Virus record (IMG/VR): IMGVR_UViG_3300012683_000008
Coordinates: 15,798 to 79,797 of that record
Length of the DNA: 64,000 nucleotides
Direction: 5' to 3' (one strand)
From: a virus
Both the position numbers and the translations under genes were made by a program. Every line of letters starts with the position of its first letter. The stretch's first letter is position 1. Below are positions 16,754 through 62,565 of the stretch, piece by piece. The notes beneath the pieces are model-generated. The model did not search any database. It had not been told where the DNA came from and was given only the letters and a program-made list of their open reading frames with translations.

Positions 16754-16797
16754 AGAGAGTACCGGGAGGATGAGCTCGCTCCCGGTATTTCTCTTAG
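16754..16797 (+). terminator. Hairpin terminator followed by TTAG, between convergent genes
   Basis: AGAGAGTACCGGGAG / CTCCCGGTATTTCT stem. Confidence 0.65.
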
Positions 16798-18614
16798 TCC
16801 TCAGACTGGACGCCCGTCTTGGCAGTGGGGTTCAGGATGTCGAAGCGGGGGATCTTCAGCATCGATGCCAGCGTGCAGAGAAGGATGGAGTGGAACGAGT
16901 CGTCCGTCGCATCGGGGGTCTTCTTGTACTGAATCTGCCGCTGCTGCTCGTTGTACTCCGAGAAGATGTTCAGCATGTCCTTCGAGAACGGCTCTTCGAA
17001 GTGGACCCAGTTCGGGAACCGGAAGACGTTGCGACGCTTGATGGCGTTGAAGACGTCGGACATCACTTCGGTGCGGTGAACCAAGAACCGAGAGAGCTCG
17101 GGGTGCCACTGCACCTTCTGCCCAGGCTGAGAGTACTGGTACTTCCGAATGCGTTCGGGACCGAACTTGCGAGTCAGGTGATCGTTGCGGTCGAAGCCAC
17201 CGCCGTAGTCGACGCCGACCACCATGCAGTTCCAGGCCTTGATGATCTGGTCGATCTTGTCGAGCTGCACCTGCGGCTCGGTGTCCTGGTGCTCGAACCG
17301 GTGGATGTAGAAGATGCAGAAGAACCCATTCAGCATGTATGCGCCGAGTGAGAGAACCGTGTACGAACCTTCGCCAGTACCCCAGTCGATGCCAGCGAAG
17401 ACCGGGCTGCTTCCGCCAAGGTTGTGGCGGATCATGTCCAAGGTCGCCTGGTCCATCAGCAACTCGTTGGCACAGTTGTCCATGATGTCCTGGCGAGTGA
17501 GCGGACGAGTGCCAGAGTCGTACGAAAGACCGAGAACTTCGTTGTGGAACTGAGAGGGCGGGTAGGTCGTGTACTTGACCAGAATCTCGTTCCACTCCAG
17601 CCACGGCACCATCACCTGGGGAACTCGGAAGCCTTCGTAGGCCTTGTCTCCGAGACCACCTTCCTGAGGCGGCCGACGAACGGTGGGGTTCATCGACGCC
17701 CAGCAGGACTCTGCACTCATGGCGTGGATACGCTGCTTGCACTTGTCGCAGACGAGACCGTCTGAACCGATGTTGTTCTCGCCGAGGACGTTCCAGTGCC
17801 ACGAGGACGGATCCTTCGGAGTCCCATGGCGCTGACAAGGAACGACCCACTCGTTCTGTGTCGAGAACGCCGACCAATAATGCTCGATGGCGTTGTCGTA
17901 GGACTTCGGCGTCCCCGAGTACATGAAGAGCTTGAATGGAGAGTGAGAGGCGCACTCTTCGATGACGGGGATGTTGTCCGTGATGACGTCTTGGAGCTCG
18001 TCGATCAGGATGAGGTCGGCGGGGATACCACGGGTTCGGTCGGCGTTGTGGTAGGCGTAGCGGAGGGTGATCTGGCTCCGGTTGATGAACTTCTTGAGGA
18101 AGACGTTGTCCGAGAGCTTCGTCGTCGTCCAAGCTCGCAGCGAGTCCGAGGTCTCGATGGGCTCCTTCAGACGGTCCTGCGAGAACACCTTCGTCTGCTG
18201 GTTGGTCGGCGAGACGTAGAGGATGTTGAAGGCGTTGTTGATGCAGGCGTACGCCAGGCTCTTGTTGCCGAGGAAGGTCGACTTCTCGACCTGCCGGCCG
18301 CACTTGAAGAGAGTCCGCTTCGCCGAGGTGTCATACGGGAGCTTCAGGTACTCACGGCCTTCGAAGGAGAAGGGCACGTGCTTCTGGGCCTTCTTGTCTG
18401 GCACCTTGATGGCGAACTGCACGAACTCGGAAGGCATGACGCCCATGAGGCGTGCGTTGCGTCGTAGGATGTCCTCATCCAAGAGGGCTTCATCGAGGTC
18501 CGGCTCGAAGTCCCATTCCTCTTTGAGCTCAAGCCTGCCGCTCTCGGACAAGACGACGTTGGAGCCGAACTTCCGTCGATACTCGTCGCTGGATAGAACG
18601 TTGTCTTCGTACAT
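16794..18614 (-). CDS. Terminase large subunit (lambda GpA-like)
   Basis: Walker A-like CGRQVEKST, Walker B LILIDELQD, coupling motif SGTP, C..H/CDKC zinc segment, nuclease GIDWG ... VDYG ... DDSFHS. Confidence 0.88.
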   Translation of the reverse strand: MYEDNVLSSDEYRRKFGSNVVLSESGRLELKEEWDFEPDLDEALLDEDILRRNARLMGVMPSEFVQFAIKVPDKKAQKHVPFSFEGREYLKLPYDTSAKRTLFKCGRQVEKSTFLGNKSLAYACINNAFNILYVSPTNQQTKVFSQDRLKEPIETSDSLRAWTTTKLSDNVFLKKFINRSQITLRYAYHNADRTRGIPADLILIDELQDVITDNIPVIEECASHSPFKLFMYSGTPKSYDNAIEHYWSAFSTQNEWVVPCQRHGTPKDPSSWHWNVLGENNIGSDGLVCDKCKQRIHAMSAESCWASMNPTVRRPPQEGGLGDKAYEGFRVPQVMVPWLEWNEILVKYTTYPPSQFHNEVLGLSYDSGTRPLTRQDIMDNCANELLMDQATLDMIRHNLGGSSPVFAGIDWGTGEGSYTVLSLGAYMLNGFFCIFYIHRFEHQDTEPQVQLDKIDQIIKAWNCMVVGVDYGGGFDRNDHLTRKFGPERIRKYQYSQPGQKVQWHPELSRFLVHRTEVMSDVFNAIKRRNVFRFPNWVHFEEPFSKDMLNIFSEYNEQQRQIQYKKTPDATDDSFHSILLCTLASMLKIPRFDILNPTAKTGVQSED

Positions 18615-18624
18615 GAATCCCCAT

Positions 18625-18652
18625 ACCGTACTGAAGCGAGAAGGGATTGCAA
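18625..18652 (-). promoter_or_regulatory. sigma70-like promoter for terminase (TTGCAA-16-TACGGT)
   Basis: Hexamers read directly; would give a nearly leaderless mRNA. Confidence 0.35.
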
Positions 18653-18653
18653 G

Positions 18654-18959
18654 ATGCTACCGCCACCGTTGGCCTGGGTAGATGGCTTCATCCACTCCAT
18701 TCAAGGAGCTCTTGGCCAGCAGGTCCGGCACGAGGTCAAAAGCACCGTCAACCCACTCGTCTACAGGATTCGAGTCGACTTCCCGGAGAAGATCTCGGGC
18801 AAGAACTTGATGCTGGTGTGGAACCTCTTTCAGATGTACGCCGCAAAGAATGACGGCGTTCCGCAAGGAAAAGCAGCCGACACAGAACGCTGCCTCGTAG
18901 CCGACGTCATCATCAAAAGACGGCTCGGCCTGCCCCGGAAGAAGCACCCACTGGAGTGA
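18654..18959 (+). CDS. Hypothetical protein
   Basis: 101-aa ORF overlapping the rnhB start (GTGA). Confidence 0.65.
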   Translation: MLPPPLAWVDGFIHSIQGALGQQVRHEVKSTVNPLVYRIRVDFPEKISGKNLMLVWNLFQMYAAKNDGVPQGKAADTERCLVADVIIKRRLGLPRKKHPLE

Positions 18960-19603
18960 ACATGTCACCAGTCAGAGCTGGCCTCGATGAGGTCGGCATC
19001 GGTGCTCTCTCGGGCCCGTACATCGCCGCCGTTGCCGTCTTCCGAGAACGAGATCTTCTTCTCCTGCCACATGGAGTGAAGGACTCGAAGAAGACGACTG
19101 AAGAACAGAGAGGCAACCTCTACCTCCCCATCTGTGCAGCAGCCTGGGACGTTGGGCTTGGCTGGGCCTGGCCATGGGAGATCGATCGATACGGCCCCTC
19201 TGAAGCCCTTCAGATGACGTACCGCAGAGCACTTGGAGAACTGAGGGTCCAGTACGACGTCCTGGTGGTCGACGGCAACATCGGGGTCCAGAGTTTCAAG
19301 GACCTATACCGCCCTGGGCGCATCATCGTTGAGCCGAAAGCCGACGTGAACCACCGAGAAGTCTCGGCCGCATCGATCATCGCCAAGTGGGCCCGAGACG
19401 AGATGATGATTTCGTACTCGAAGAGGTTCCCTCAGTACGCCTGGAACGAGAACAAGGGCTACGGCACGAAGTCTCATGAAGACGGTATAAGGAAGTACGG
19501 ACTACTCGTAGACCCTCAAGACACGAGTAGGTACCTTCACCGGAGACACTACTGCAAGAAGTTCATGTATGAGACAAACAACGGTACCACCAGGGTTCGA
19601 TAG
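18956..19603 (+). CDS. rnhB: Ribonuclease HII
   Basis: GLDEVGIGALSGP, GVKDSKK, VVDGN, AASIIAKWARD, NKGYGT. Confidence 0.93.
   Translation: MNMSPVRAGLDEVGIGALSGPYIAAVAVFRERDLLLLPHGVKDSKKTTEEQRGNLYLPICAAAWDVGLGWAWPWEIDRYGPSEALQMTYRRALGELRVQYDVLVVDGNIGVQSFKDLYRPGRIIVEPKADVNHREVSAASIIAKWARDEMMISYSKRFPQYAWNENKGYGTKSHEDGIRKYGLLVDPQDTSRYLHRRHYCKKFMYETNNGTTRVR
19484..19491 (+). promoter_or_regulatory. GGTATAAG motif inside rnhB
   Basis: About 80 nt upstream of ORF 19569; uses an ATA codon that looks uncommon here. Confidence 0.45.
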
Positions 19604-19847
19604 CCAGGTCCCCTGTCTCTGCTGCAACCAGATGGTGCTGATCAGATCCAACGACTGGACCAATTCATCGGCCGGTCTTTGCGTTGGCTGCTACGGCTTC
19701 TTGCCGCTTCAGCTCATCCAGGTGCTGTACATCCTGAGATGCCAGATCGGTGCGATCCACATCCAAGTCGGAGAGGTGCAGGGGAACATGCAGAAGCTCT
19801 TCAACACTGTCAGGGACCTCGAAGAACTGGTCCTCAACACGCCCTGA
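19569..19847 (+). CDS. Small zinc-finger/coiled-coil protein
   Basis: CLCC...CVGC; followed by terminator. Confidence 0.6.
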   Translation: MRQTTVPPGFDSQVPCLCCNQMVLIRSNDWTNSSAGLCVGCYGFLPLQLIQVLYILRCQIGAIHIQVGEVQGNMQKLFNTVRDLEELVLNTP

Positions 19848-19852
19848 AAGGG

Positions 19853-19884
19853 AAACAGAGAGGACGAACCTCTCTGTTTTTAGC
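19853..19884 (+). terminator. Hairpin terminator followed by TTAGC
   Basis: AAACAGAGAGG-acgaa-CCTCTCTGTTT then TTAGC. Confidence 0.75.
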
Positions 19885-19886
19885 TC

Positions 19887-20363
19887 TCAGTCCTTGCCGC
19901 CCATCGCCTTGTGCAGCTCCATCGCTGCCTCGATGCAGATGTTCCGGAAGAACTGGTTCGTGCCGAAGCCGTTCACCTTCACGAACCACGCACCGATGTC
20001 GGCATCGAAGCTGAGATCGCAGCGGCCCTGACCGAAGACCTTCGCCATCACCATGCTGAGGGTCTTCTCGAAGTCCTTCTTGAACGCCGGCAGGCGCTCG
20101 TCCTTCTTGCGGTCCGCATCGTGGTAGCCCCACGGCCAGACGTGGTAGATGACGTCGTCACCCTTCACGCCGAACTCGGCCTCGAAGGTGTGCACTCCCT
20201 TGATGGGCTGGAAGTCGACCTTCTCGAAGGGACGGGTCCCTCTGTCGGCTTCCTTCTGAACGACCGGCAGACTCTCCTTCCTGACTTCGGTCAGGAGACG
20301 AGCTCTTGCCTCATCGACCTGCAACTTCTCTCGGGTCTGGGTCTGCTGCTCAGTCCATTCCAT
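19887..20363 (-). CDS. Hypothetical protein
   Basis: 158-aa ORF, GAGG RBS, typical codon usage. Confidence 0.7.
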   Translation of the reverse strand: MEWTEQQTQTREKLQVDEARARLLTEVRKESLPVVQKEADRGTRPFEKVDFQPIKGVHTFEAEFGVKGDDVIYHVWPWGYHDADRKKDERLPAFKKDFEKTLSMVMAKVFGQGRCDLSFDADIGAWFVKVNGFGTNQFFRNICIEAAMELHKAMGGKD

Positions 20364-24605: not shown

Positions 24606-25673
24606 CTACTTGGCGAACAGGGACGACGAGGTGATGTCAGGGGTCGTTGGGGAAAGGGGAGGGCCGGTTGGAGCTCCAGGCGACGTTGTCGAGTGCATGT
24701 GGTTGTCGAGCCATGTCAGAAGAGGAGGGGCGAGAGCAACTCCCTTGGTCCCACCGCCGGCGTAGAGCTTTGGCTTGCAGTTCACCTGGCCCGAGCCTTC
24801 GATGTTGACGTCGCCTCCTGATGACTTGATGTCGACACCGTCGCTGCCCTTGATCTCCGCTTTCTTCTTTGAGTCGACGTTGAAGTTGTCTTCCGTCTTG
24901 ATGGTGATGGCCTTCTTTACCGTGAGCTTGAACTCCCCGTCGATCACCAGCTCAGCGTCCTTCTTCGTCGTCAGCTTGAGCTTGCCGTCTTTACCAAGAC
25001 TTAGCTCGATCTGTTTCTCGGCGCCGCTCTTGCCCTTGTCATTGATGAGAAGGGTGAGAATACGGTCGTCTCCATCACCGTGGGAACCGATAAGAAGCTT
25101 GGCAATTGGCTCCTCGTCGTCTGCGAACTCTCGGGCTGCGATCAAGAGAGAGGCTGGTCTCTTCCCGTCAGTCGTGCTCTCTTCTCGTTCCACTTTCCAT
25201 TCGAGGTCACCACCGAGAGTATGGAGACCGTAGTTCTCACAGAAGTCTTTGATGGTGTTGGCGATGGGCAGGAAGATCCTCTGGCACAGAGGCCCAGCCC
25301 CTATCTGTACGACTCCACCTCTCCGCAGAAACAGAAAGTTCTCGTCACGGGTGCCCATGTAAATGTCACCCGGATTGAGGTCTTTCTTCTTCGCCCTCGC
25401 ATCTCCGTCTTCGGACGCTGGCCCCCATGCGAGGATGAAGGGCCGGTTGTGATCTGAGGGCGAACAGATCCAACAGAGGCTGCCCACCTCCGGCATGAAG
25501 TAGATGCCCTCACCGTTCGAGTAGTGCTGGTACGGCGTGGCGAACTTGATGCCGGTCAGAGGCTTCTTCGAGAACTCGGTGGCAGCAGAGACCGTGTAGG
25601 TCGTGATGTCGACGTCCAGGATGATCCCGGACTCGATCCTGGCTGCAATTACCTCAGACTGAGTCGGAGTCAT
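24606..25673 (-). CDS. Baseplate central spike (P2 gpV/Mu gp45-like)
   Basis: N-terminal OB-fold motif FMPEVGSLCW, beta-helix repeats, C-terminal LDNHMH..PGAPTGPP (HxH apex). Confidence 0.75.
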   Translation of the reverse strand: MTPTQSEVIAARIESGIILDVDITTYTVSAATEFSKKPLTGIKFATPYQHYSNGEGIYFMPEVGSLCWICSPSDHNRPFILAWGPASEDGDARAKKKDLNPGDIYMGTRDENFLFLRRGGVVQIGAGPLCQRIFLPIANTIKDFCENYGLHTLGGDLEWKVEREESTTDGKRPASLLIAAREFADDEEPIAKLLIGSHGDGDDRILTLLINDKGKSGAEKQIELSLGKDGKLKLTTKKDAELVIDGEFKLTVKKAITIKTEDNFNVDSKKKAEIKGSDGVDIKSSGGDVNIEGSGQVNCKPKLYAGGGTKGVALAPPLLTWLDNHMHSTTSPGAPTGPPLSPTTPDITSSSLFAK

Positions 25674-28600
25674 CAGTACACGTACTTGGCTTTGCTCGGC
25701 GGAGCCTTACCGAACTCGGCCCCATACGCTACACCAGGAATCGGGTGAGTGCCGTGGAGGTCGGACTTCATGTTCGTTGCCACACCCTCCTGAAGGGTCG
25801 AACGAATCTGCTGGAAGTTGAGCCGGGCCATCCAGTCCTTCGACCGCATGGGCAACTGGTTGACCGACTGGAGCATCGGCCGGTGAACGACCTGCCTGGC
25901 ACCCTTTGCCATCTCCCGGTTTCTCTCTTCGACCTTCGAAAGGGCGATGATGTCTCCAGGCGTGTAGTCCGAGTCTCCTGGCTCTACGACCTTGGTGAGG
26001 TTCGTGAGGGCCCTGACCACCGTCTCGATGTTCCTCCGCCGCACGCCCTCTTTCTTGTAGAGGCCATTGTAGAGCTCGTTCGTGAGGTGGTTCTGCACGT
26101 TGGACATGTCGGTGTACTTCAGGAGGTGCAGAGGGTTGACGTGACCTTCTGAAATCGCATCACCCTTCTTCACCTCGGACCCGATCTGAACCATGAGCGG
26201 CAGCTTCACCGGCACGTAGTGACGCTCGTCACCGATGAAGATGTCGTGACCACCGGCCGCATCCTTCTTGATGTCCGTCACCTTGCCGGTCACCTTCGAG
26301 AGGGTCGCCTCGTTCTTCAACTTCTTTGGCACCTTGAGGAGGTTGTTCAGCTTCTCGAAACGGCTGACCGACATCGCTCCTCTCGTGCTGCCGGCGATGC
26401 CGCCGGAGTGGAATGCGTCCATCGCCATCTGCACAGCCGGTTCACCCATCGACTGGCCAGCGAGGATGCCGACGTTCGTGCCCTCTGAGTGGAGGGTTCC
26501 GTTCTCGTTGAGACCGAAGCACTTGGCGCAGATGCCTTCGCCCTTGTGGCACTTGAGCGGAGAACGAACGACGACCTTGTCGTGCTTCGAGTTCTTCAGC
26601 CGGCTCCAGATCTCTGGAGTGACGAGCGTTCCGGCCTTGATGACCTTGCCGTCTTTCGTCTCGTACGGCTTGGCCAAGAAGCGATCGTGGATGTCCTCGT
26701 GTTCGAGCGGCATCAGAACGCCGTGGGTAGTACCGCAGTCCTCAGACGTGATGAGGTAGTTCATCGTCGAGTTGAGGATCTCCTTCGACATCGCTCCAGG
26801 CTCGCTGGTGCCCTGAGCACGCTGGAGGGTTCCCTTGCGAGCGCCGTGCTGTGCCAGCCAGTAGTCGCCGATGTCCAGACCTTCGGAGTAGCTCCTGGTC
26901 ACAGGCGTTGGGATGGTCCGGTTGGTCGCATCCTGCATCAACATCGGAGCAGCGATCATCTGTCGGAGCTGCTCTGGCTTTCCACGAGCCCCGGAGTAGA
27001 CCATCGTGGCAAGACGGTTCGACGTACCAGCGAGCTGGTGCCGAGCTGAGGCATCGAGCTCTTCGGTCGCCTTCGAGTAGATACTGACGAGCTTCGCATC
27101 GAGCTCGTCCTTGCCCTTGACGGTCTTCTTGGCCTGATCCGCTTCCTTGTGGGCGACGGCCAGGATGCGGTCTCGACCTTCTAGGGGCTTCAGGTCCTTC
27201 AAGCCGATGGAGAACGCCGTCTGGTAGGAGTGCTCGTTGCCGAGATCCTTCAGGGCGTCGATGGCCTGAGCGAAGTGCTCTGAATGGTTCTTGGCGAGAT
27301 CCGTCGCCATGTGGCTCATCGTCTTCTTGTTGATCTCGTAGCTCGGATCGTGAAGAACACCCTCACGCATATGCATGGTCTTCGGCAGCCACGCAGCGAT
27401 GCGCATGCGGCCGAGAGTGGTGTCCTTGCCGTTGAGCTTGATGATGTCCGTGTGCTCGATCTCGTGCTTGTCAGCAGCACGGTCGACTCCGGCACCGTCA
27501 GTGAAGCTCTTGGTCGTCTTCTTGCCCCACTTCGACATCAGGTGGAGACCGAGCATTGCTTCCTGGCTCGGCGTGTACATGACGCTGCCCGTGGTCGGGG
27601 AGAAGAGGTTCCTCGACGGGAACATCTTCTTGGCCTCGTCCACTGCCTCACGAGACAGAGGCACAGTACCGGCCATAGTGTCACCGTCGAAGTCGGCGTT
27701 GAAACCACCGGTGACGAGCGGGTGAATCTGAATGGCCTTGCCTTCGATGAGCTTCGGCTGGAACGCCATCACCGAGAACTTGTGGAGTGCAGGGTCACGC
27801 TTCAGGAGGATGGGGCGGTCCTTCACCACCTCTTCGAGTGCCTTGAAGGCGAAGTCGGTCCCGTCCTTCATCTCCTTGCGAGCGACGAGAGGATCCATGC
27901 CCCAGCGTCCGAGCTGGGCGACCACGAAGGGCTTGTAGAGCTCCATCGCTGCGTTCTTCGGCAGGCCGACCTGATCGATGTGCAGGTTCGGCTCGGGGAT
28001 GATGGTGGAACGGATCGAGAGGTTCTGCCGCCTCTTGACGAGCTTCGACTGGAAGTAGGCGTCCTTTGGCTGGTCGCCTTCTCCAGAGCCACCGAGAGTC
28101 TCCAGGATGCCCTTGAGCTTCCTCCGACCGCTCGACTCGTCGTAGACGGGTCGGTAGTCGCCGACTGCCTGGAGTGCTTTGTAGGCGTCCCAGAGAGCTG
28201 ACTGGAGCGGCTTCCGATCGCTCTCCGTGAAGACCGCTGGGTCCCAGTCCTTGAGAGCCTGGTTGACGATGGCGAAGTTCTTGTAGTGCTGAACGATGGG
28301 CGGAGTGTTCACGTCCCCACGGTCTGTCGGCGTCATCGGCCGGAAGACCGGCGGGATGATCGGCAGGTAGTGGGTCATGTACGCCTCAGCGGGCGACATG
28401 CCGTTCTCTTTCAGAGCGGTGAGGAACTTCACCTTCTTGTGGAGACGATCGAGCTGAGCTCCCTTCACCGTCTTGAGCCGCTCCTTGGCCCCACGAAGTT
28501 CGGCATCGACGTCAAGCTTCTGCAATGCGGACTTGATGGCCGCACCACCGGTCTTGCCGTTGAGGTCCTGCTTGCCGGCCATGATGGCGTCGATGTCTTC

Positions 28601-32027: not shown

Positions 32028-32035
32028 GGTATAAG
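32028..32035 (+). promoter_or_regulatory. GGTATAAG motif
   Basis: 40 nt upstream of the first gene of the 32-34.5 kb island. Confidence 0.55.
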
Positions 32036-32074
32036 GTCAGAGTCGTAGAGTAACAGCTCTGCGACGGAGGGATC

Positions 32075-32227
32075 ATGGGACCAGACGACAAAGATGAAGA
32101 GAAGCCGAAGTCGCAGTCCGAGATGTTCGAAAAGGAACGCAACGATGCGTTCTTCAGTCATCTCGATGGGGAGAAGAAAGAAGACGAAGAGGAAGAGGAG
32201 AAGAAGCCGGCAGAGGAACCGAAGTGA
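32075..32227 (+). CDS. Small acidic protein (50 aa)
   Basis: GGAGG RBS; MGPDDKDEEK...NDAFFSHLDG...EEPK; not in ORF track. Confidence 0.6.
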   Translation: MGPDDKDEEKPKSQSEMFEKERNDAFFSHLDGEKKEDEEEEEKKPAEEPK

Positions 32228-32325: not shown

Positions 32326-32332
32326 GGTCCGA

Positions 32333-34450: not shown

Positions 34451-34453
34451 GGG

Positions 34454-34488
34454 GAGAAACGACCGGGCCGGGTCGTTTCTCTTTAGCC
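34454..34488 (+). terminator. Hairpin terminator followed by TTTAGCC
   Basis: GAGAAACGACC-gggccg-GGTCGTTTCTC then TTTAGCC. Confidence 0.75.
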
Positions 34489-34571
34489 TTCGAACCGCAG
34501 CACAACAGGAGAGAGGAAGCTCAGCGTCTGTTCTAGGTCCCTCAACGGTTCCAAGACGCCTTGCTACAAGC

Positions 34572-40884: not shown

Positions 40885-40892
40885 GGGATAAG
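40885..40892 (+). promoter_or_regulatory. GGGATAAG motif
   Basis: 37 nt upstream of the first gene of the replication block. Confidence 0.55.
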
Positions 40893-50354: not shown

Positions 50355-50366
50355 TGCAGTAGAGAG

Positions 50367-50409
50367 AAGCCCTCCCTCGAAAGGGGGAGGGCTTTCTTCC
50401 CCTTTAGCC
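50367..50409 (+). terminator. Hairpin terminator (GAAA loop) followed by TTTAGCC
   Basis: AAGCCCTCCCTC-gaaa-GGGGGAGGGCTT, TCTTCCCC, TTTAGCC. Confidence 0.75.
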
Positions 50410-50420
50410 ACGAGGCACTC

Positions 50421-52427: not shown

Positions 52428-52435
52428 GGCACGTC

Positions 52436-52711
52436 ATGACGGAAGTAGAGATCATCGAGGAGATCGCCGCTGCTCAGAGCCTGTCGAAGGCTACGGTGGC
52501 GGCGGTCTTCCATCAGGCGAAAGACGTGATGAGGAAGGCCCTGGAGTCCGGAGAGAGCGTCACGCTCATCGGCTTCGGGGCTCTCCGAGTCGAGAAGCAC
52601 AAGAAGAAGCAGCTCTTCGGCAAGCCCAGAGGAGAAGGGTTCTGGGTTAAGGTGAAGTTCCACCCAAGCCGGAGGAAGCCTCTTGGAAAAGTACGCCGTA
52701 GTTCTGGATGA
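52436..52711 (+). CDS. HU/IHF-like DNA-binding protein
   Basis: IIEEIAAAQSLSKA..ALESGESVTLIGFGAL..KVKFHPS; DNA-binding arm looks shortened. Confidence 0.8.
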   Translation: MTEVEIIEEIAAAQSLSKATVAAVFHQAKDVMRKALESGESVTLIGFGALRVEKHKKKQLFGKPRGEGFWVKVKFHPSRRKPLGKVRRSSG

Positions 52712-52892
52712 CGAGAAGACGAAGACTGCAAACGCAGGGCGACTGTGCCCAGGGTGCGGACACAACATCAGCACCCCTGGACACTGCTCGAACTGCGGCA
52801 CCAAGCCATTCGAGAAGCAACCAACTGGAGGCACACTTGGCGGGCAAGAAGGCGAAGAGGGAAGCTCCGGCGGCACCACCACCGACTCGTAA
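52683..52892 (+). CDS. Small zinc-ribbon protein
   Basis: GGAGG RBS + TTG; CPGC..CSNCGTKPFE. Confidence 0.55.
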   Translation: MEKYAVVLDDEKTKTANAGRLCPGCGHNISTPGHCSNCGTKPFEKQPTGGTLGGQEGEEGSSGGTTTDS

Positions 52893-54156
52893 GGGCAAGG
52901 AAGAAGCAACACCTCCCTCTCGAAGTGAGAGGGCTGCGGCTCTGATGGAGAGCATCAACACCAAGTCCAAGGGGCATGCGCAGCTCTTTGCCGCCTCTGA
53001 GTACATCCTCCCCTACCTCACGAAGAGAGTTCCGACGGGTCTTCTGACCCTCGACATCGTTCTTCGTGGAGGGATTCCGTGCGGCGGCATCAGCCAGATC
53101 ATCGGGAAGAGGAACGCCGGCAAGGACTGGCTGATGTGGCAGTGCATCAAGCAGCTTCAGTACATGCTGGGCGACAACATGCACGTCATGTTGGCGATGA
53201 ACGAGCACCACGCCGACAGATCCCAAGCACGTCTCGGTGGGGTCAAGGTCTCGATGGGCAAGGACTTCGTCGACCAGTCCAACAAGGCCCGTGAGCAGAT
53301 GGGGCAGCCTCGCTTCACGAAAGAGGAAGAAGAGAATCTGCTCAGTGAGATCGGGACCATCCACGAGCTCCACGCCTCGACCGCTGAAGACTTCTACGAC
53401 TCGATTCTTCAGGCAGTCGAAGAGGGCATCTACCACCTCATCGTCATCAACAGCATCGGCAACATCATGTCGGCGGCGGCAGCAGAGACTGACTCCGTTC
53501 ACGACAAGACCTACGCTGGCGCCGCTGGACCGAACACGGTCTTCCTCCAGAAGCTGACCAGCCTTCTGACGATGAAGGACAAGTACGGCAAGGTTCGAGA
53601 TACCTGCGTCCTTGCCATCAACCAGGTCCGAGACAACATCGCTGACCCGAACAAGCCTTACAAGGCCCCAGGCGGGAAGGCCCTCGAACACGCCAAGCTC
53701 CTCGACATCTACGTCGAGAGCGGCTCTCAGCTTGGTCAGGAGGAACAGGTCCTCAAGATGACCAACGAGGGTCTGAAGGCCTCGAAGCAGTTCACTGCAT
53801 GGGGCAAGCAGGTGAACTGGAAGATCGAGAAGGGCAAGGCCGGCATGCACGAGGGGCAGCGTGGGACGTACGTCTACGACTTCCGCCTGGGCAACGCCGA
53901 CTTCTACACCGACACGATCATCGCTGGCCTCACCTACGGAGTCATCGAAGGTTCGGGCTGGTACAACATTCCAGACCCGGCCAACACGTCTCAGAACCTC
54001 CTCCGAGTGCAGGGCCGAGACAACCTCATCAAGGCTCTGGCCGAGGACGCCAAGCTGAAGGCCGAGGCAGGCGACTCGAACACACTGATGAACTTCATCC
54101 GTGACGAGTGCTTCCGGAGAGCGGGCATCAACATCAACTACGAATGGGAGGACTGA
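52837..54156 (+). CDS. RecA/UvsX-like recombinase with atypical Walker motifs
   Basis: PTGLLTLDIVLRGGIPCG..IIGKRNAGKD, NEH, LIVINSIG, AINQVRD, PGGKALEH, KIEKGK; TTG start after GGAGG. Confidence 0.85.
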   Translation: MAGKKAKREAPAAPPPTRKGKEEATPPSRSERAAALMESINTKSKGHAQLFAASEYILPYLTKRVPTGLLTLDIVLRGGIPCGGISQIIGKRNAGKDWLMWQCIKQLQYMLGDNMHVMLAMNEHHADRSQARLGGVKVSMGKDFVDQSNKAREQMGQPRFTKEEEENLLSEIGTIHELHASTAEDFYDSILQAVEEGIYHLIVINSIGNIMSAAAAETDSVHDKTYAGAAGPNTVFLQKLTSLLTMKDKYGKVRDTCVLAINQVRDNIADPNKPYKAPGGKALEHAKLLDIYVESGSQLGQEEQVLKMTNEGLKASKQFTAWGKQVNWKIEKGKAGMHEGQRGTYVYDFRLGNADFYTDTIIAGLTYGVIEGSGWYNIPDPANTSQNLLRVQGRDNLIKALAEDAKLKAEAGDSNTLMNFIRDECFRRAGININYEWED

Positions 54157-54602
54157 TGCGCCCAGGACGAAGAAAGAGCGTTCTCCAGGAACGCAGAATC
54201 GCTGAAGACATCGGGGGCCGAGTCCAGCCCGGATCCGGTGCCCCAGCGTTCTACAAGAGCGACGCAGTAGCAGGCCTCGACCTGAGAGTCGAGGCAAAGA
54301 CCACCTCGAAGGAGAGCTACACCCTGACCACGGCCGTCATCGACAAGATCCGCAACGAAGCGCTCAGTGGCGGTCAAGAAGACTGGGCGATGCAGATCGA
54401 GTTCCAGGGGCGGTTCTCTCACAAGAGAGTCGCCGTCATCGACTGGGACAGGTTCCTCGACTTGAAGACTCGCAGCGTGGAGCTCCAGGGCGTGAAGGAT
54501 GAGCTCAGTCTTCTCTTCAAGACCATGAAGGCGGCCGAGAAGCTGAAGAAAGAGGCCGGAGAGAAACCGGACGAAGCTCTCAGCAAGGAAGACTGCGGAT
54601 GA
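54156..54602 (+). CDS. PD-(D/E)XK endonuclease, Hjc-like resolvase candidate
   Basis: QERRIA..GGRVQPGSGA..KSD..VEAKTT. Confidence 0.7.
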   Translation: MRPGRRKSVLQERRIAEDIGGRVQPGSGAPAFYKSDAVAGLDLRVEAKTTSKESYTLTTAVIDKIRNEALSGGQEDWAMQIEFQGRFSHKRVAVIDWDRFLDLKTRSVELQGVKDELSLLFKTMKAAEKLKKEAGEKPDEALSKEDCG

Positions 54603-54829
54603 CTGCATCAGGCGTCTACAAGCACAACAAGACCGGGAAGACGTACTTCGTGAAGGGCACGGGCATCATCGCCACCAACGGTGAGAACAACGGCAAGAAG
54701 GTGGTTCTCTACCAGCCCCTCGACGACCCCAAGTGGGACCCCAACGAGTACTACGTCCGGGACGAACCGGAGTTCAACAGCCCTGGACGTTTCACCTACC
54801 TACAGGGCCCAAGGAAGGAAGACCGGTGA
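54599..54829 (+). CDS. DUF1653-like protein
   Basis: GVYKH.KTGKTY.V..VVLYQPL..YYVR...EF..RF. Confidence 0.65.
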   Translation: MTASGVYKHNKTGKTYFVKGTGIIATNGENNGKKVVLYQPLDDPKWDPNEYYVRDEPEFNSPGRFTYLQGPRKEDR

Positions 54830-55695
54830 GTGACAAGCCCATCATCCAGCTTCACACCCTCGAACAGTGGTTCCAACAGGACCCAACGATTCGAGGGATG
54901 ATCCTTCAGAACATCAAGGTGAAGGATCGCCTCTGGCAGTACCTGGAGGGAGAGAAGAGGAAGCCGGACATCGTGGAGCCGTACTGGGCTCCGTGCAAGA
55001 AGTGCGAACAGCGTGGGTGGCTCGCAGTGCATCCCCGCTACGCCGGCTTCCATCCGTCGCAGATCAACAGCGCTTGCATGCTGAAGCTCTACAACGAGAT
55101 CGTCGGCATTCCAGAGTCGAAGAGAACGGAGCCTCGGCTACAGCTCATCTTCGACGTCGGGCACGCCGTACACTACATGTTCCAGAAGTACGGCGAGAGA
55201 GGGGCCTGGGGCAAGCACTACACCCCTGAGGCTCCGGTCAATGCCGAGACGACAGAGCTCGCAGAAGAGCTGATGATCGAGGGACATGCTGACGCCGACA
55301 CACTGATGATGGTCGATCGGCCGGAGTGGCCGGTGGCCTACGAGGTCGGAGTCGTCCACGAGTACAAGACGGCCAACAGCAAGAACTTCTCGAAGCTGAC
55401 TCGCCCGAAACCAGAGCACCAGATGCAGGCGCTCATCTACTCGGCTTGCCTCAACAGGCCAGTGGTGGCGTACCTGTACATGAACAAGGACGATCAGAAC
55501 CTGGCCGACTTCCCAGTCGAGTTCAAGCCCGACGTCTGGGCCAACGTCCACGGCAAGATCAAGATGATGGTGGACATGTACCGGGAGGGAGTCTCTCCGA
55601 AGGGCGAGACCGGTTACCACTGCCAGGAGTGCCCGTACGTTCACTCCTGCTTCGACTACCGCAACGAGATGATCAAGAAAACCCCTGGAGGGTAG
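54826..55695 (+). CDS. Cas4/RecB-like PD-(D/E)XK exonuclease
   Basis: HPSQINSAC, GHAVH, GHAD, EYKT, QALIY, CQECPY...C. Confidence 0.8.
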   Translation: MSDKPIIQLHTLEQWFQQDPTIRGMILQNIKVKDRLWQYLEGEKRKPDIVEPYWAPCKKCEQRGWLAVHPRYAGFHPSQINSACMLKLYNEIVGIPESKRTEPRLQLIFDVGHAVHYMFQKYGERGAWGKHYTPEAPVNAETTELAEELMIEGHADADTLMMVDRPEWPVAYEVGVVHEYKTANSKNFSKLTRPKPEHQMQALIYSACLNRPVVAYLYMNKDDQNLADFPVEFKPDVWANVHGKIKMMVDMYREGVSPKGETGYHCQECPYVHSCFDYRNEMIKKTPGG

Positions 55696-56289
55696 ATGCC
55701 TGGAGCACTAGAAGTTCAACTCGATCAGATCGTTCCGGTGGCGAATGCGAACGTGCTTCTCCATCGGCAGCAGGAGGTTCTCAACTACGTCCACACCACG
55801 TTGGGCATTCCGCAACTGACGAAGCCAGGGCTGGCCATCTCTGCTCTTCCGAACGACCTGACGACTCTTTCGGACAACGACCTCGGCAACCTCCTCAGCA
55901 CTCTCGGCCAGTGGGTCGGCTACATCGACCAGCAGTTGGCCAACACCGACAGCGAGAGGAAGAGTGCTGATGCGTACCTCACGTTCATTCAGGCGAGAGT
56001 GCGCATCGAGATCAAGCAGCACTCGACCGAGAAGCGGCTGACCACGCAGGACAAGAACGACATGATGGAGACCAACCCGACGGTCGTTGACGCCAAGGAC
56101 AAGTCGATGTTCTGGGAGTCGACCTACCGTCTCACGAAGTCTCTTCGAGACAGTGTGCAGCTCGCATGGGAGACTGTCTCCAGACGCATCACGCAGAGAG
56201 GGCAAGAAGTCGACCGCATGCGTAGAGAGACCAACGTGGCCGGCATGCCCTCTGCCGCAAGAACCTTTCACAGGCCAGGAGGAAGCTGA
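55696..56289 (+). CDS. Helical protein, possible UvsY-like recombination mediator
   Basis: 197-aa coiled coil in the recombination cluster; function inferred. Confidence 0.45.
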   Translation: MPGALEVQLDQIVPVANANVLLHRQQEVLNYVHTTLGIPQLTKPGLAISALPNDLTTLSDNDLGNLLSTLGQWVGYIDQQLANTDSERKSADAYLTFIQARVRIEIKQHSTEKRLTTQDKNDMMETNPTVVDAKDKSMFWESTYRLTKSLRDSVQLAWETVSRRITQRGQEVDRMRRETNVAGMPSAARTFHRPGGS

Positions 56290-56960
56290 TGGTGGACTAC
56301 AGGGGCATCATTCTCGGTGTCATGGGGCATTCCGGAGTCGGCAAGGACACGATGGCCGACAGGCTCATCGACAAGCACGGCTTCGTGAAGATGGGGCTGG
56401 CGGACGAGATCAAGAGGACCTGCAAGAAGATCTACGACTTCTCCGACTTGCAGCTCTGGGGGCCGTCGGAAGAACGCAACAAGCCCGACCTTCGCTACCC
56501 CATCCCCGGTAAGGGTCACCTGAGCCCTCGGGTTGCCCTCCAGACCTTCGGGACTGAGGGAGGAAGGGCTTGCTACCCGAACACGTGGATCGATCTCACC
56601 CTGCGGAACTGCGATCGAATCCTCACCGACGGCACCGACTACGACCAGAAACAGGGAGTCTTCGAGAGCTCCTTCTGGAAGCGGGGCCGCTACCAAGGCG
56701 TGGCCATCCCGGACGTTCGCTTCAAGAACGAGCTCGATGCCATCCACTCCAAGGGCGGATACATCATTCGGCTCCGCCGAAAGGGTGTCGACGGAAACGT
56801 CGGTCTCAAAGGCCACGCTTCCGAGGAAGAGCAGAAGTCGATCATGGACCACGAGTGCGACTTCGTTCTCGATGTCCCTGAGGGCTTCGCCAACTTCTAC
56901 GCCGAGATCGACGCCCTCATGATGAAGATCCCGAAGGTCAGCCTTCGGTCAGTCAAGTAG
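56289..56960 (+). CDS. Deoxynucleoside monophosphate kinase
   Basis: GHSGVGKDT, LADEIK, PRVALQTFGTE, IPDVRFKNE, HASE. Confidence 0.9.
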   Translation: MVDYRGIILGVMGHSGVGKDTMADRLIDKHGFVKMGLADEIKRTCKKIYDFSDLQLWGPSEERNKPDLRYPIPGKGHLSPRVALQTFGTEGGRACYPNTWIDLTLRNCDRILTDGTDYDQKQGVFESSFWKRGRYQGVAIPDVRFKNELDAIHSKGGYIIRLRRKGVDGNVGLKGHASEEEQKSIMDHECDFVLDVPEGFANFYAEIDALMMKIPKVSLRSVK

Positions 56961-56968
56961 GAGGCACC

Positions 56969-57229
56969 ATGGCCACACCGAGATGGTTGGAGAACTACTA
57001 CGGGAAGGACTTCGACTTCCTGAACCCTGAAGTCGTGTTCGACGGGAAGAAGAAGGCAGTGGTGAAGCTGGTGAGGACCGGCAGCAGGGTCCACAGCAGC
57101 ATCGGCTACGTGCTTCTCGACAAGAACGGAAGTCACCTCGCCAGCACCCCCAAGTCCCTCCACGAGGGAGTTCCATCGCAGGCGGATCTCGATCGTATGA
57201 GGGAGGCACTGAAGAAAGCAGACACATGA
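56969..57229 (+). CDS. Hypothetical protein
   Basis: AGGAGG RBS. Confidence 0.65.
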   Translation: MATPRWLENYYGKDFDFLNPEVVFDGKKKAVVKLVRTGSRVHSSIGYVLLDKNGSHLASTPKSLHEGVPSQADLDRMREALKKADT

Positions 57230-57600
57230 GCGACCCGGCATTCTACCTCTGGGTGCAGGAGACGATGCCCAGAGAGCGGTACAACAGCTACTCAGACCGT
57301 TACGACAACAAGCCGTCGTCCTTTACTTGGATGGCGCCTCTCGATGCGAAGAGCGTGGAAGAGGCCCGAGGAAAGGCGATCATCATGCTCGATCAACATG
57401 ACCTGACTCGGACGGAGGACAACCTCGACTACCAGGTCAAGCACGCCATCATCTACGAGTTCAAGGAGAACATGATCGGCGTGTACAAGAAGAACAAGGA
57501 AGAGCGGCAGTCAGAGATCGAGAAGAAGAGGAAGCAGGAAGAACTCAAGAGGGCTGAAGCAGAAGTTGAACGGCTGAAGAAGGAACTGGGAGAGGGCTGA
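57226..57600 (+). CDS. Hypothetical protein with C-terminal coiled coil
   Basis: ATGA overlap. Confidence 0.65.
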   Translation: MSDPAFYLWVQETMPRERYNSYSDRYDNKPSSFTWMAPLDAKSVEEARGKAIIMLDQHDLTRTEDNLDYQVKHAIIYEFKENMIGVYKKNKEERQSEIEKKRKQEELKRAEAEVERLKKELGEG

Positions 57601-58628
57601 TGCCACAACCGATCGTTGAACGAGGCACCTTGATGAAGGTGTTGGACCACGGCTACGTCCGCATCATCAACTTCATGGGCAACGACGAGGAGATCGTCGA
57701 AGCCGCACGGATGAGCAACGACAAGGGTTTCATCTCCTGGAACCACTACGTCCGCTGCAAGAACTGCACGAAAGTGCTCTACGCACCACCGGATGGGCAT
57801 GTCGTCGTGCCGAGCGACGACTGCGTGACTCCAGTCACCAGGCGTTCGACAGGAGAGGTGGTCGGCAGTGCGACCGGCAAGCATGACTGGGAGCACTTCC
57901 CACACGGCGACCTCGGCCTCCTCGACAACCTGTGGAGGAAGAAGCACGCCACCCCGTTCGAGATGGGGGAACTCGTCATCGAAGTGCAGGCGCCCATCAT
58001 GGTGTTCCGTGAGTGGCACCGGCACAGGACTCAGTCGTACAACGAGTTCTCGGCCCGCTACTCGGTGATGCCGAACATCCACTACATCCCGGAGAGGGAG
58101 CGCATCCAGAAGCAGAGCACGGCCAACAAGCAGGGCAGTGCCGAGCAGATGGATGACGACACCTCGTCTCAGGTTCGTGCCGAGCTTGAGAGGCAGCAGC
58201 AAGAGATCTACGACTACTACGAAGGTTGGTGCGAGTCGGGAGTCGCAAGAGAAGTGGCTCGCATCAACACTCCAGTCTCTCGCTACTCGAAGATGAGGGC
58301 GAAGGGGAACATCAGGAACTGGTTCCAGTTCTTGAACCTCCGCATGCGGCCCGATGCTCAGTACGAGATCCGCCAGTACGCCAACGAGGTCGGCAAGATT
58401 CTCTCCTGGCTCTGGCCGAAAGCGTACAGCTTCTTCGAAGAGTACGACCTCTACGGAGCTCACTTCAGCAGGACAGAGCTCAAAGCTCTTCGCACCATCC
58501 TCATGAAGGCCAACGTCGTTGAGCAAGTTGAGCTCATGAAAGTCTTCGAAGAACATGGTTTGAAGGGAACCAAGCTCAAAGAGTTCCAGGAAAAGCTGCG
58601 AGAGGGCGGCGACAAGATCCTGAGCTGA
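57600..58628 (+). CDS. thyX: FAD-dependent thymidylate synthase
   Basis: VLDHGYV, AARMS, HATPFE, REWHRHRTQSYNEFSARYS, REVAR, FLNLR, AQYEIR. Confidence 0.93.
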   Translation: MPQPIVERGTLMKVLDHGYVRIINFMGNDEEIVEAARMSNDKGFISWNHYVRCKNCTKVLYAPPDGHVVVPSDDCVTPVTRRSTGEVVGSATGKHDWEHFPHGDLGLLDNLWRKKHATPFEMGELVIEVQAPIMVFREWHRHRTQSYNEFSARYSVMPNIHYIPERERIQKQSTANKQGSAEQMDDDTSSQVRAELERQQQEIYDYYEGWCESGVAREVARINTPVSRYSKMRAKGNIRNWFQFLNLRMRPDAQYEIRQYANEVGKILSWLWPKAYSFFEEYDLYGAHFSRTELKALRTILMKANVVEQVELMKVFEEHGLKGTKLKEFQEKLREGGDKILS

Positions 58629-58631
58629 CTC

Positions 58632-58639
58632 GGCATAAG
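58632..58639 (+). promoter_or_regulatory. GGCATAAG motif
   Basis: In the 30-nt gap before ORF 58659. Confidence 0.5.
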
Positions 58640-58658
58640 AGGGAGGAGGAGCACAAAC

Positions 58659-59348: not shown

Positions 59349-59794
59349 GGAACATCCTTCAAGTCACGTACCCTGAGCTGCCGCCGACCAGCAACCGTCT
59401 CTACTTTCGAGGGACGATGCTGACGGCGGTGGCCAAGAGGTACGGGGAGTCATTCGCCATGTTCATGGCGCAGAAGCATGGTGCAGACATCCTGGAGATG
59501 GATCGAGAGTCCATCTACGCCCTGCACCTTCGCTTCTTCTTCAAGAAACTGGAGAACGCAGGCTGGAACGACCCCAAATGTCCCCCTTCAAGACGACCCA
59601 AATCTCGGTATAAGAAGATAGACCTCAGTAACAGAATTAAGTTGCTGGAGGACTGCGTCCGAGATGCTCTCGACATCGACGACTCACAGACGTTCGCTGC
59701 CTCCCAAGAGAAGCACCAGTGCGAAGAGGGGGAGAGCGAGCGGGTAGAGATCATCATCCAACGAGTCGAACCGGGCCTCTTTGGCCTCGGTTGA
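59345..59794 (+). CDS. rusA: RusA-like Holliday junction resolvase
   Basis: PPTSN, DLSNRIKLLEDCV...IDDSQ. Confidence 0.8.
   Translation: MRNILQVTYPELPPTSNRLYFRGTMLTAVAKRYGESFAMFMAQKHGADILEMDRESIYALHLRFFFKKLENAGWNDPKCPPSRRPKSRYKKIDLSNRIKLLEDCVRDALDIDDSQTFAASQEKHQCEEGESERVEIIIQRVEPGLFGLG
59607..59614 (+). promoter_or_regulatory. GGTATAAG motif inside rusA
   Basis: Sits in a locally AT-rich patch with atypical codons (AAA TCT CGG TAT AAG AAG ATA). Confidence 0.45.
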
Positions 59795-60812: not shown

Positions 60813-61916
60813 ATGCCACCTCCGCCGCTACAAGACGGCAGACCGACGCTGACGACCAGTCAACGACGCCAGTACTTCGAGGAAGTTCGCTTCATCGAAG
60901 TTCGCCACCTGGCGTATCTCTTCTACAAGAAGCCGGACGGCGAACCGCTTCTGAAGTACGAAGACACCCTGGACAACCGAGACATGGTCAAGAACAACGT
61001 CTTGGCCTACGAAGTCGCCCAGGGCTGGCTCATCCCGGACGGGACGGAGGGCCAGACTCAAGTTCCCGCTCAACCGCAACAGCAGCCCACCCAACCCGTT
61101 GTCCAGCAAGGAGCACCCCAGATGCAGCCGTTCAATCCTCCCCCCAACGGAGTGCCTGCCCCTCAGCCGCAGATGGCTCCGGCGCCGATGCCCCAGCAGC
61201 CGCAGTACGCCATGCCTCCGCAGCAGCAGATGCAACCCCAGCAGATGCAGGCACCCGTCCCTCAGCAGCAGCCGATCCCCCAGCCTCAGTACGCTGCTCC
61301 GGCTCCGCAGATGGCCCCTCCGCCCGTGGCAACCCCACAGCAGGCGGCTGGGGTGCCCCCCCAGCAGGAAGCTCCGGCTGGAGCTCCCACCGGTCGTCGG
61401 CGCAAGGGTCAGGGCACGGCAGTAGCCCCGCCTCCCGCTGCTCCTCCGCCTCCGCCGCAGGGTGCTCCGGTCCAGCAGTTCGCACCGCCTCAGCAGCAGG
61501 CGATGCAGTTCGGAGCTCCGCCTCCGGGCATGCCGGTACCGCAGCAGATGGCACCTCCGCAGCAGATGCAGCAGATGCCTCCGGCTCCGTTCGGAGCACC
61601 GGTTCCGATGCAGTCCGGGCCGGCGGCGTATCAGCCGCAGCCGCAGGCTCAGCAGGGTGCCCCTCAGCCCCAGCAGGCTGCGGCGGTGGACCTGAACCCC
61701 GTGCTGGCTCGGGTGGACGCTCTCGCCAAGATCGTCGAGGCGCAGAACGGGCAGATCAAGGAGCTCCGGCTCACGGCTGAGATCTCTCTCGGTCTGCTGC
61801 ACCACCTGTACCTCGTGAACCCCCAGCTCCAGCCTCAGCAGGGCCAGCCCCAGCTCCCCCGGACGCTGCCGGACTTCAAGAAGTACTTCCAGCAGTTCGT
61901 CGGAACCCCTCAGTAG
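60813..61916 (+). CDS. Protein with long P/Q-rich disordered linker and C-terminal coiled coil
   Basis: 367 aa; GAGGAG RBS; about 200 aa of P/Q/A/M low complexity. Confidence 0.75.
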   Translation: MPPPPLQDGRPTLTTSQRRQYFEEVRFIEVRHLAYLFYKKPDGEPLLKYEDTLDNRDMVKNNVLAYEVAQGWLIPDGTEGQTQVPAQPQQQPTQPVVQQGAPQMQPFNPPPNGVPAPQPQMAPAPMPQQPQYAMPPQQQMQPQQMQAPVPQQQPIPQPQYAAPAPQMAPPPVATPQQAAGVPPQQEAPAGAPTGRRRKGQGTAVAPPPAAPPPPPQGAPVQQFAPPQQQAMQFGAPPPGMPVPQQMAPPQQMQQMPPAPFGAPVPMQSGPAAYQPQPQAQQGAPQPQQAAAVDLNPVLARVDALAKIVEAQNGQIKELRLTAEISLGLLHHLYLVNPQLQPQQGQPQLPRTLPDFKKYFQQFVGTPQ

Positions 61917-61951
61917 GGACGCTGTCTCAAGGGGAGCCGCCTTCGGCGGAG

Positions 61952-62152
61952 GTGGCTCCCCTTCGGCGTCCGCACACCATCGTCCCAGAGCAGGTACTGA
62001 CGGTGGAGAGTGACGACCTCAACCTGATGAGTGATCAACAGCTCATCGAATTCGCCGCTCACCACCTCAGTCTCGTCTTCGCACCAGGTTCTCCGAGAAC
62101 TCTTGTCCTAAGCAAGATCGTCTCGTCGTCCCTGGTGATAGCCGACGCCTGA
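61952..62152 (+). CDS. Small Rho-N/HeH-like protein (possibly a frameshift extension of the upstream gene)
   Basis: DLNLMSDQQLIEFA..LSL..RTLVLSKIV; start buried in a 14-bp hairpin. Confidence 0.5.
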   Translation: MAPLRRPHTIVPEQVLTVESDDLNLMSDQQLIEFAAHHLSLVFAPGSPRTLVLSKIVSSSLVIADA

Positions 62153-62186
62153 GTGGTACAACTGGGACTTCGCCAAGGAACAAGTC

Positions 62187-62375
62187 ATGGAAGAGAAGAA
62201 CGACCTCACCCGGTACCAGAAGTACGCCTTTGCAGAGTACCGAAAGTGGGCTCACAAGAACACGCCGAACCACGAGCACCGGTACAACAGCAAAGGTGAG
62301 TGCGTTTGCGGCAAGGTTCTCGCCGACATCAGGCCCTACCCGCTGAGCGGAGGAGCAACTCCGTGGACAGGCTGA
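62187..62375 (+). CDS. Small hypothetical protein
   Basis: AAGGA RBS; HEH..CVCG. Confidence 0.55.
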   Translation: MEEKNDLTRYQKYAFAEYRKWAHKNTPNHEHRYNSKGECVCGKVLADIRPYPLSGGATPWTG

Positions 62376-62530
62376 AGCAGCACAAGCAGATCATCACGCA
62401 GAGCCTGAGAGACGACTTCGAGAAGGAGCTCCGAAAGGAGCATACGATCGCCAGGATGCACTTCGATGTTGCCGATGCGATGGCAGCCTTCGACCGCATC
62501 TTCGAAGTGGCAAAGGCCCCAAAGGCCTGA
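62363..62530 (+). CDS. Small hypothetical protein
   Basis: GTG after GGAGGAG; ends before the terminator. Confidence 0.55.
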   Translation: MDRLKQHKQIITQSLRDDFEKELRKEHTIARMHFDVADAMAAFDRIFEVAKAPKA

Positions 62531-62533
62531 GCC

Positions 62534-62565
62534 AGGAAGGACGCTACCGCGTCCTTTCTTTAGCC
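62534..62565 (+). terminator. Hairpin terminator followed by TTAGCC
   Basis: AGGAAGGACGC-tacc-GCGTCCTTTCT then TTAGCC; between convergent genes. Confidence 0.7.

Follow-up and report, generated by a model that had tools for sequence, protein, structure and literature searches.

The 64,000-nt window analysed here comprises bases 15798-79797 of IMGVR_UViG_3300012683_000008, a 79,797-bp viral record of an uncultured phage from a soil metagenome. Its subject is a short word beginning with TTAG that follows hairpins at the ends of plus-strand gene blocks. Coordinates are window positions unless marked "genome", which denotes positions in the full record. The full record has a G+C content of 59.5% and a CheckV completeness of 43%; no near-identical phage was found in INPHARED and no close match among deposited phages. 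The sequencing runs listed for this DNA are two soil-metagenome DNA runs and no RNA run. On the minus strand, the window carries the genes for the major capsid protein, the large terminase and the portal, together with a gene for a single-chain β/β′-like RNA polymerase, the sole RNA polymerase gene found (Table 1). The genes recognised on the plus strand encode a DnaB helicase, a primase, a family-A DNA polymerase, a RecA-like protein, and ThyX. Neither Rfam families nor tRNAs were found in the window.

A first-pass annotation had pointed out five hairpins ending plus-strand units and followed by TTAGTCC (16794), TTTTTAGCT (19877) or TTTAGCC (34482, 50403 and 62559). Direct reading of the sequence located all five tails at these positions, each preceded by a stable GC-rich RNA hairpin of the kind that characterises intrinsic terminators (minimum free energy -18 to -27.8 kcal/mol, z -2.7 to -5.7). 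With two extra sites of like build beyond the window, at genome 1995 and 4127, the record has seven in all. All seven trail plus-strand genes and close promoter-headed blocks, which is the sense 3′-end placement of an intrinsic terminator; six are located at convergent junctions and one (50404) between co-directional genes. The latter, the sole co-directional site of the window, lies between a 483-aa gene and the family-A DNA polymerase gene and is not followed by the promoter word GGNATAAG described below. The 16794 site closes a one-gene unit (16210-16746), and the large terminase gene, which converges on it, has its TAA stop in the TTA of this site; at 62560, the TTA is the TAA stop of a convergent SNF2-type helicase gene. 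These are the only two window sites at which TTA coincides with a minus-strand TAA, as had been noted before. At 19880 it is the TCA seven bases on (19887-19889), inside the longer box defined below, that forms the TGA stop of a convergent 158-aa gene. The 34483 site closes the unit 32028-34450; 89 nt beyond it lies the stop of the minus-strand gene called next.

Table 1. Features of the window. MFE, minimum free energy of the RNA hairpin in kcal/mol; z values of the five box-bearing hairpins were taken against dinucleotide shuffles.
Feature	Position	Strand	MFE	z	Remarks
Terminator hairpin of the major capsid gene, tail CTGTTTGTGG	7152..7187	minus	-28	-4.1	No TTAGC box; contrast class
Major capsid protein gene	7225-8346	minus			
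Promoter word GGGATAAG	16164..16171	plus			Heads unit ending 16794
Hairpin 16754-16794 + box TTAGTCCTCA 16794-16803	16754..16803	plus	-24.1	-4.0	
Large terminase gene	16794-18614	minus			606 aa
Promoter word GGTATAAG	19484..19491	plus			Heads unit ending 19880
Hairpin 19851-19881 + box TTAGCTCTCA 19880-19889	19851..19889	plus	-18.3	-5.7	
Single-chain β/β′-like RNA polymerase gene	25673-31912	minus			2079 aa; candidate reader of the signal
Promoter word GGTATAAG	32028..32035	plus			Heads unit ending 34483
Hairpin 34451-34484 + box TTAGCCTTCG	34451..34492	plus	-21.8	-4.8	
Portal gene	35163-37187	minus			
Promoter word GGGATAAG	40885..40892	plus			Heads replication unit ending 50404; second word inside at 46290-46297
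Hairpin 50362-50399, tail CCCT, TTAGCC 50404-50409	50362..50413	plus	-27.8	-2.7	
Promoter word GGCATAAG	58632..58639	plus			Heads unit ending 62560; another at 59607-59614
Hairpin 62534-62559 + TTAGCCCTGC	62534..62569	plus	-18.0	-4.1	

The distribution of the word was analysed by strand. In the record, TTAG was present within about 17 nt of an intergenic hairpin on the plus side in 8 of 24 cases and on the minus side in 0 of 24; the chance expectation for the former count is about 0.13, as estimated from the 26 plus-strand TTAG in 79.8 kb. The number of TTTAG on the plus strand as a whole was near expectation (8 observed versus 5.4 under a Markov model), and raw TTTAGCC counts in relatives were no different from those of a reversed control. 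TTTAG and TTAGC are not enriched globally and the hairpin-side counts are one-stranded; hence, the signal is positional.

Relatives were found by means of the polymerase. The search gave 18 viral contigs with 53-66% identity, several of which are complete genomes (177-209 kb, bearing terminal repeats). A five-genome set was formed from this record and four whole relatives, each oriented by the promoter word GGNATAAG alone, which showed strand counts of 8:0 (this record), 25:0, 24:0, 24:1 and 15:0. A test in which the 50 nt before each TTAG were folded proved too noisy in relatives of 52% G+C; intergenic hairpins with a ΔG of -12 or below were used instead, 263 in the five genomes. On the promoter strand, 42/263 had TTAGC no more than about 17 nt downstream; on the other strand, 0/263 did (Fisher P = 8e-14). 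Furthermore, the polymerase loci of 13 further relatives, held out and oriented by the polymerase gene, gave 11:0 for hairpin plus TTAGC and 35:2 for promoters. The strand-wise scan proposed in the first-pass annotation was thus carried out both in the five genomes and in the held-out relatives, and it came out one-sided in both. In five more records the strict 10-mer defined below occurred on the promoter strand only (6:0). The box persists across genomes of 51 to 65% G+C whose polymerases are 53-66% identical.

To describe the element, a logo was drawn from 52 sites in the five genomes picked solely by the presence of a hairpin and TTAG. Conservation extended well past these four letters, with C at +4 (43/52), Y at +5 (49/52), T at +7 (38/52), C at +8 (37/52), A at +9 (35/52) and G at +10 (22/52); at other TTAG sites these positions agreed in just 25-32%. 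The consensus is therefore TTAGCYYTCA(G). The TTAG(C) tail proposed earlier is a real word, but it was drawn too short. The 10-mer pattern TTAGCYYTCA showed a strand ratio of 55:4, as compared to 11:12 for its reversed control. The tail, taken to begin at the final G-C pair of the stem and to end at the A of TTAG, has a median length of 6.5 nt and consists of 84% T and 93% pyrimidine. Its longest T run is no more than 3 nt (2-3) in 29/52 sites, and the earlier wording "instead of a long poly-U" is a fair one. The box starts about where a canonical terminator would release the RNA. Stems are unrelated in sequence and length between sites (no MAFFT alignment), whereas the box is constant.

Hairpin polarity was determined by strand-symmetric detection with Watson-Crick seeds only and folding of both strands; detection that allows G-T pairs on the plus strand would bias the comparison. 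TTAG-followed hairpins were more stable as plus-strand RNA in 29 cases versus 10, with a mean difference of -2.2 to -2.5 kcal/mol. This preference was observed at co-directional (P = 0.005) as well as at convergent sites (P = 0.008), whereas convergent hairpins without TTAG showed no plus-strand RNA preference. The polarity suggests that the hairpins act in the plus-strand transcript, also where a junction seems bidirectional.

Gene orientation was examined at the 52 sites, 27 of which lie between co-directional plus-strand genes and 23 at convergent junctions. At the 23 convergent sites, TTA serves as a TAA stop in 12 and TCA at +7 as a TGA stop in about 7. The reverse complement of the box holds TAA and TGA in two frames, and the word is unchanged whichever frame the convergent gene arrives in; therefore, the box seems to supply in advance the stops at which convergent genes end. 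The idea that the word is an artefact of chance or of stop codons, TTA being the reverse of TAA beside a T-rich tail, is very hard to credit. It can draw on the two true TAA stops among the five window sites and on the near-expected global number of TTTAG, but it is refuted by the strand counts (42:0 and 11:0), by the conservation from +4 to +9, by the 27 co-directional sites and by the frame counts that follow. Conservation past TTA together with the co-directional sites rules out a stop-codon by-product, in agreement with the earlier remark that the tail is not merely a stop codon. Likewise, the plus-strand TAG was considered as a true read-through stop of the upstream gene and ruled out, its frames being distributed 17/12/12, which is the chance level.

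The promoter word is part of a bipartite element. Across 96 sites in the five genomes it reads CAAAW-N13-T-N-GGNATAAG, with CAAAW at -19 to -15 and T at -2; the first three letters of CAAAW are conserved in 62/96 (C), 67/96 (A) and 81/96 (A) sites. Minus-strand genes showed no comparable motif in their upstream regions. The five units that had been delimited from a GG-N-ATAAG site to a tailed hairpin hold, and all plus-strand blocks bearing either signal read promoter ... terminator. One plus-strand block outside the window, genome 5864-7291, has neither promoter word nor box. Among plus-strand gene blocks, the promoter word and an end-of-block box were associated with an odds ratio of 4.6 (P = 0.007), a value based on crude gene calls.

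In addition, box sites and promoters can lie close together. A fresh promoter follows 10/52 box sites at close distance, mostly with a spacing of 27-32 nt, forming compact terminator-promoter cassettes. Such a promoter at a fixed short distance after the box fits real termination, which requires re-initiation. Seen from the promoters, 13/96 have a box upstream, mostly 26-33 nt away. The remaining 83/96 are without one and have CAAAW as their own upstream element, which rules out the box as a general upstream promoter element. In relative G005 (reverse-complemented), a dense array of tiny units, each with promoter word, hairpin and TTAGC, was observed at about 9.4-13.2 kb, with promoter and terminator sometimes only about 40 nt apart; these units could be small RNAs or decoy units.

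Some promoters have neighbouring structures of their own. The promoter word at 32028 is followed six nt on by a 5′ hairpin (32042-32065) and then by a GGAGGG ribosome-binding site, and the arrangement of promoter and 5′ hairpin also occurs at several promoters of relatives. Upstream of dnaB, TTTAGG lies 19 nt beyond GGGATAAG at 46290, and no strong hairpin separates the two (46290-46320); a mini-unit of promoter, hairpin and TTTTAGCC has been described at the matching place in a relative.

The box is absent from all minus-strand terminators and from plus-strand terminators with good T-tracts. The terminator of the major capsid gene lacks it, as the first-pass annotation had stated, and so do its counterparts in four relatives. 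This terminator is a hairpin of the GGGAGG...CCTCCC type in the record and in G001, G003, G004 and G005, with a TTTGT or TTTCT tail in four of these five genomes; judged by its sequence, it is a putative second, box-less terminator type of the late strand. On the plus strand, two hairpins with good T-rich tails and no box (genome 6974-7015 and 7312-7349) flank a cold-shock-like gene, and the plus-strand block around this gene is also without GGNATAAG; it may represent a separate, host-type transcription class. A fragment resembling a tRNA T-arm was noted at about genome 7380-7420, and ARAGORN found no tRNA in the whole record.

Two structures inside plus-strand units differ from the sites described so far. 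A hairpin at 61926-61966 (about -31 kcal/mol) lies directly 3′ of a 367-aa plus-strand gene (60813-61916) within the 58.6-62.6 kb unit and has neither a T-rich tail nor a TTAGC box; it is a different kind of element. A perfect TTAGCCCTCA is located at 42147-42156 inside the gene of a ResIII helicase (41553-43025), preceded at about 20 nt by no more than a weak hairpin; it may be due to chance or else act as an internal attenuator.

The first-pass annotation had further proposed a sequence-specific termination or processing signal for the phage RNA polymerase. The conserved sequence, the tie to the strand and class of the GGNATAAG units, and the selection of the hairpins as plus-strand RNA support this proposal in part, as does the occurrence of mapped terminators of like form in phage phiKZ; as to the reader of the signal, we infer that it would be either the single-chain β/β′ RNA polymerase of the phage or a phage-encoded factor attached to this enzyme. 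Neither a T7-like polymerase (PF00940) was found in the record nor a second multisubunit polymerase. A 236-aa plus-strand ORF (open reading frame) at 15441-16151, which has an N-terminal HTH_17 domain (E = 1.7e-8), adjoins the large terminase gene and is kept in relatives; it overlaps competing minus-strand ORF calls and may encode a small terminase or another DNA-binding protein. Sub-threshold matches to sigma region 4 fall on this protein, which is not a sigma factor and has no PDB relative.

The element has a fixed anatomy, is specific to one strand and one class of units, is conserved among relatives, and is polarised at the RNA level. It looks like a lineage-specific version of an ordinary transcription stop signal. 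To judge from the sequence comparisons, the sites are probably class-specific hairpin terminators of the GGNATAAG units with a functional 3′ box, at which the RNA would end. The transcription class would consist of the plus-strand non-structural units that start at CAAAW-N13-T-N-GGNATAAG. At their ends the nascent RNA would fold into a GC-rich hairpin, and the short pyrimidine stretch (median 6.5 nt, often with a T run of 3 or less) would replace the usual U-tract. The box, about 7-9 nt past the stem and at the release point expected for an intrinsic terminator, would cover both the 3′ end of the RNA and the DNA that the polymerase is about to enter, and may offset the weak U-tract as a pause or release signal. 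The next plus-strand unit, if any, would begin at a new promoter 27-32 nt after the box. A more specific version may be put forward tentatively, as possible rather than probable: the box could be a dedicated release signal that the phage polymerase or a phage termination factor recognises in the DNA or in the nascent RNA, and could form with GGNATAAG a self-contained, orthogonal grammar of starts and stops.

Several points weigh against termination by a class-specific, phage-read signal. Promoter words and boxes all lie on one strand; class and strand are therefore confounded, and a purely strand-specific DNA feature is formally possible. The box is rarer in more distant relatives and degenerate at 50404 and 62560. 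Behind the 50404 site lies the DNA polymerase gene cluster (50421-58628), which has no recognisable promoter; hence, this site is either leaky or not a terminator. The polymerase, with one gene per genome, is encoded within the minus-strand structural module, and three Pfam models revealed no sigma-like gene in the five genomes, with no match at all for Sigma70_r2. Gene calls were home-made from ORFs and codon usage. In addition, phage 201phi2-1 has a motif A similar to that of phage phiKZ, and eight of its terminators were active in host cells that had not been infected (PMC11512511), which means that a special polymerase need not be involved.

A role in RNA processing or stability, in which a host or phage endoribonuclease would cut at or near UUAGC and the hairpin would shield the new 3′ end, seems unlikely. 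It would account for hairpins selected at the RNA level on the plus strand and for the poor U-tract at most sites, and the missing promoter between the 50404 site and the DNA polymerase gene would suit a cut inside a polycistronic RNA. Processing alone, however, does not require the fresh promoter that 10/52 sites have at 27-32 nt or slightly more, transcription must stop regardless at the 23/52 sites located at convergent junctions, and phiKZ, as the closest precedent, has been interpreted in terms of intrinsic termination. It appears quite unlikely, too, that the sites are ordinary intrinsic terminators of the host RNA polymerase, with a box that has no part in termination and is kept for reverse-strand stops and by the copying of cassettes through recombination, comparable to the PeSL (promoter-early stem-loop) elements of T4-type phages. 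A GC hairpin and T-rich tail at gene ends, the stop codon of the convergent gene provided by TTA or TCA at about 19/23 convergent sites, the existence of terminator-promoter cassettes and the activity of the 201phi2-1 terminators in an uninfected host all fit this explanation. Yet cassette copying predicts the opposite of unrelated stems beside a constant box; furthermore, the box is kept at the 27 co-directional sites, which have no need of a stop codon, and over the whole range of G+C content and polymerase divergence given above, and it is missing from the plus-strand terminators with good T-tracts and from all those of the minus strand.

Finally, the box could be an asymmetric DNA operator of about 10-13 bp, at which a phage protein blocks elongation one way, as at the stoperators of cluster A mycobacteriophages, or tunes the downstream promoter. 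The asymmetry of the word, its single orientation relative to transcription, its location in short intergenic regions where it often overlaps stops, and the fixed 27-32 nt spacing where a promoter follows would agree with such a role. The coupling of the box to an RNA-polarised hairpin at a near-fixed distance is needless for a DNA operator, however, 83/96 promoters lack an upstream box, and no candidate binding protein was identified; we regard this explanation as doubtful, with a slim chance at most.

To our knowledge, the way in which virus-encoded multisubunit RNA polymerases stop is almost unstudied, and phiKZ-type phages are the only case we found with mapped, motif-bearing terminators. 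The phages described here add a second, unrelated clade of uncultured jumbo phages with its own fixed word after hairpins, a one-chain polymerase, and a clade-wide promoter. For metagenomic genomes of this clade, promoter ... hairpin plus box provides an annotation grammar, and for biochemistry on the fused polymerase the box offers a concrete, testable signal. Should it turn out to be polymerase-specific, it would be a compact orthogonal terminator part. If it is a dedicated release signal, the grammar would insulate the phage units from the host enzyme independently of a U-tract.

Short fixed words are also part of other virus-specific stop signals, among them ATCTGTT, the class II signal of T7, and TTTTTNT, the early signal of vaccinia. 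The element described here would resemble them in this respect; these signals, however, act without an adjacent hairpin, via a single-subunit polymerase or a capping-enzyme factor. With canonical Rho-independent terminators it shares a GC-rich hairpin and, behind it, a T-rich tail at the 3′ ends of units; several copies lie between convergent genes in the manner of bidirectional terminators. It differs in that the tail is short and interrupted by C (T run of 3 or less in 29/52 sites; a U-tract of about 7-9 nt is typical of the canonical kind), that an invariant word follows, and that the polarity is one-stranded even at convergent junctions. The terminator-promoter cassettes, among them the G005 array at 9-13 kb, are similar to the PeSL cassettes of T4-type phages (PMC2839356, PMC4122927), which are likewise compact composites of stem-loop terminator and promoter repeated between small genes. 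Unlike in PeSL, the promoter consensus does not resemble the sigma-70 pattern TTGACA-N17-TATAAT, cassettes hold just 10/52 terminators and 13/96 promoters, and the box is conserved, not the whole cassette. The β/β′-like polymerase and the tailed-phage genes of the record would fit the mReC (multisubunit-RNAP-encoding Caudovirales, RNAP being RNA polymerase), tailed phages whose β and β′ homologues branch as one clade; the paper defining this group mentions neither promoter nor terminator (PMC7481178).

The closest likeness is to phiKZ, which has only its own multisubunit polymerases and in which most predicted intrinsic terminators at 3′ ends mapped by ONT-cappable-seq share a stem-loop with TTAT, the consensus being BCCYCCCCHWWDGGGRRGGBYTTATKYYGT (Putzeys et al. 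2024, PMC10914365). Both systems combine a phage-encoded RNA polymerase of multisubunit type with many copies of a GC-rich stem-loop that is followed by a short TTA-containing word and no long U-tract; here the box follows 42/263 intergenic hairpins, and each genome has one β/β′-like polymerase such as the 2079-aa protein of this record. The likeness is one of form only, with YTTATKYYGT in phiKZ and YTTAGCYYTCA here. Moreover, the phiKZ stem is conserved (CCYCCCC...GGGRRGG), whereas the stems of the present element are unrelated and only the tail is fixed, and its motif is confined to one strand and one promoter class. The polymerase is a single fused chain, one per genome, in contrast to the two split multi-subunit enzymes of phiKZ, and the element is known from DNA sequence, whereas the 3′ ends of phiKZ were mapped. 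The element is thus not a new kind of system; its form is already known from phiKZ.

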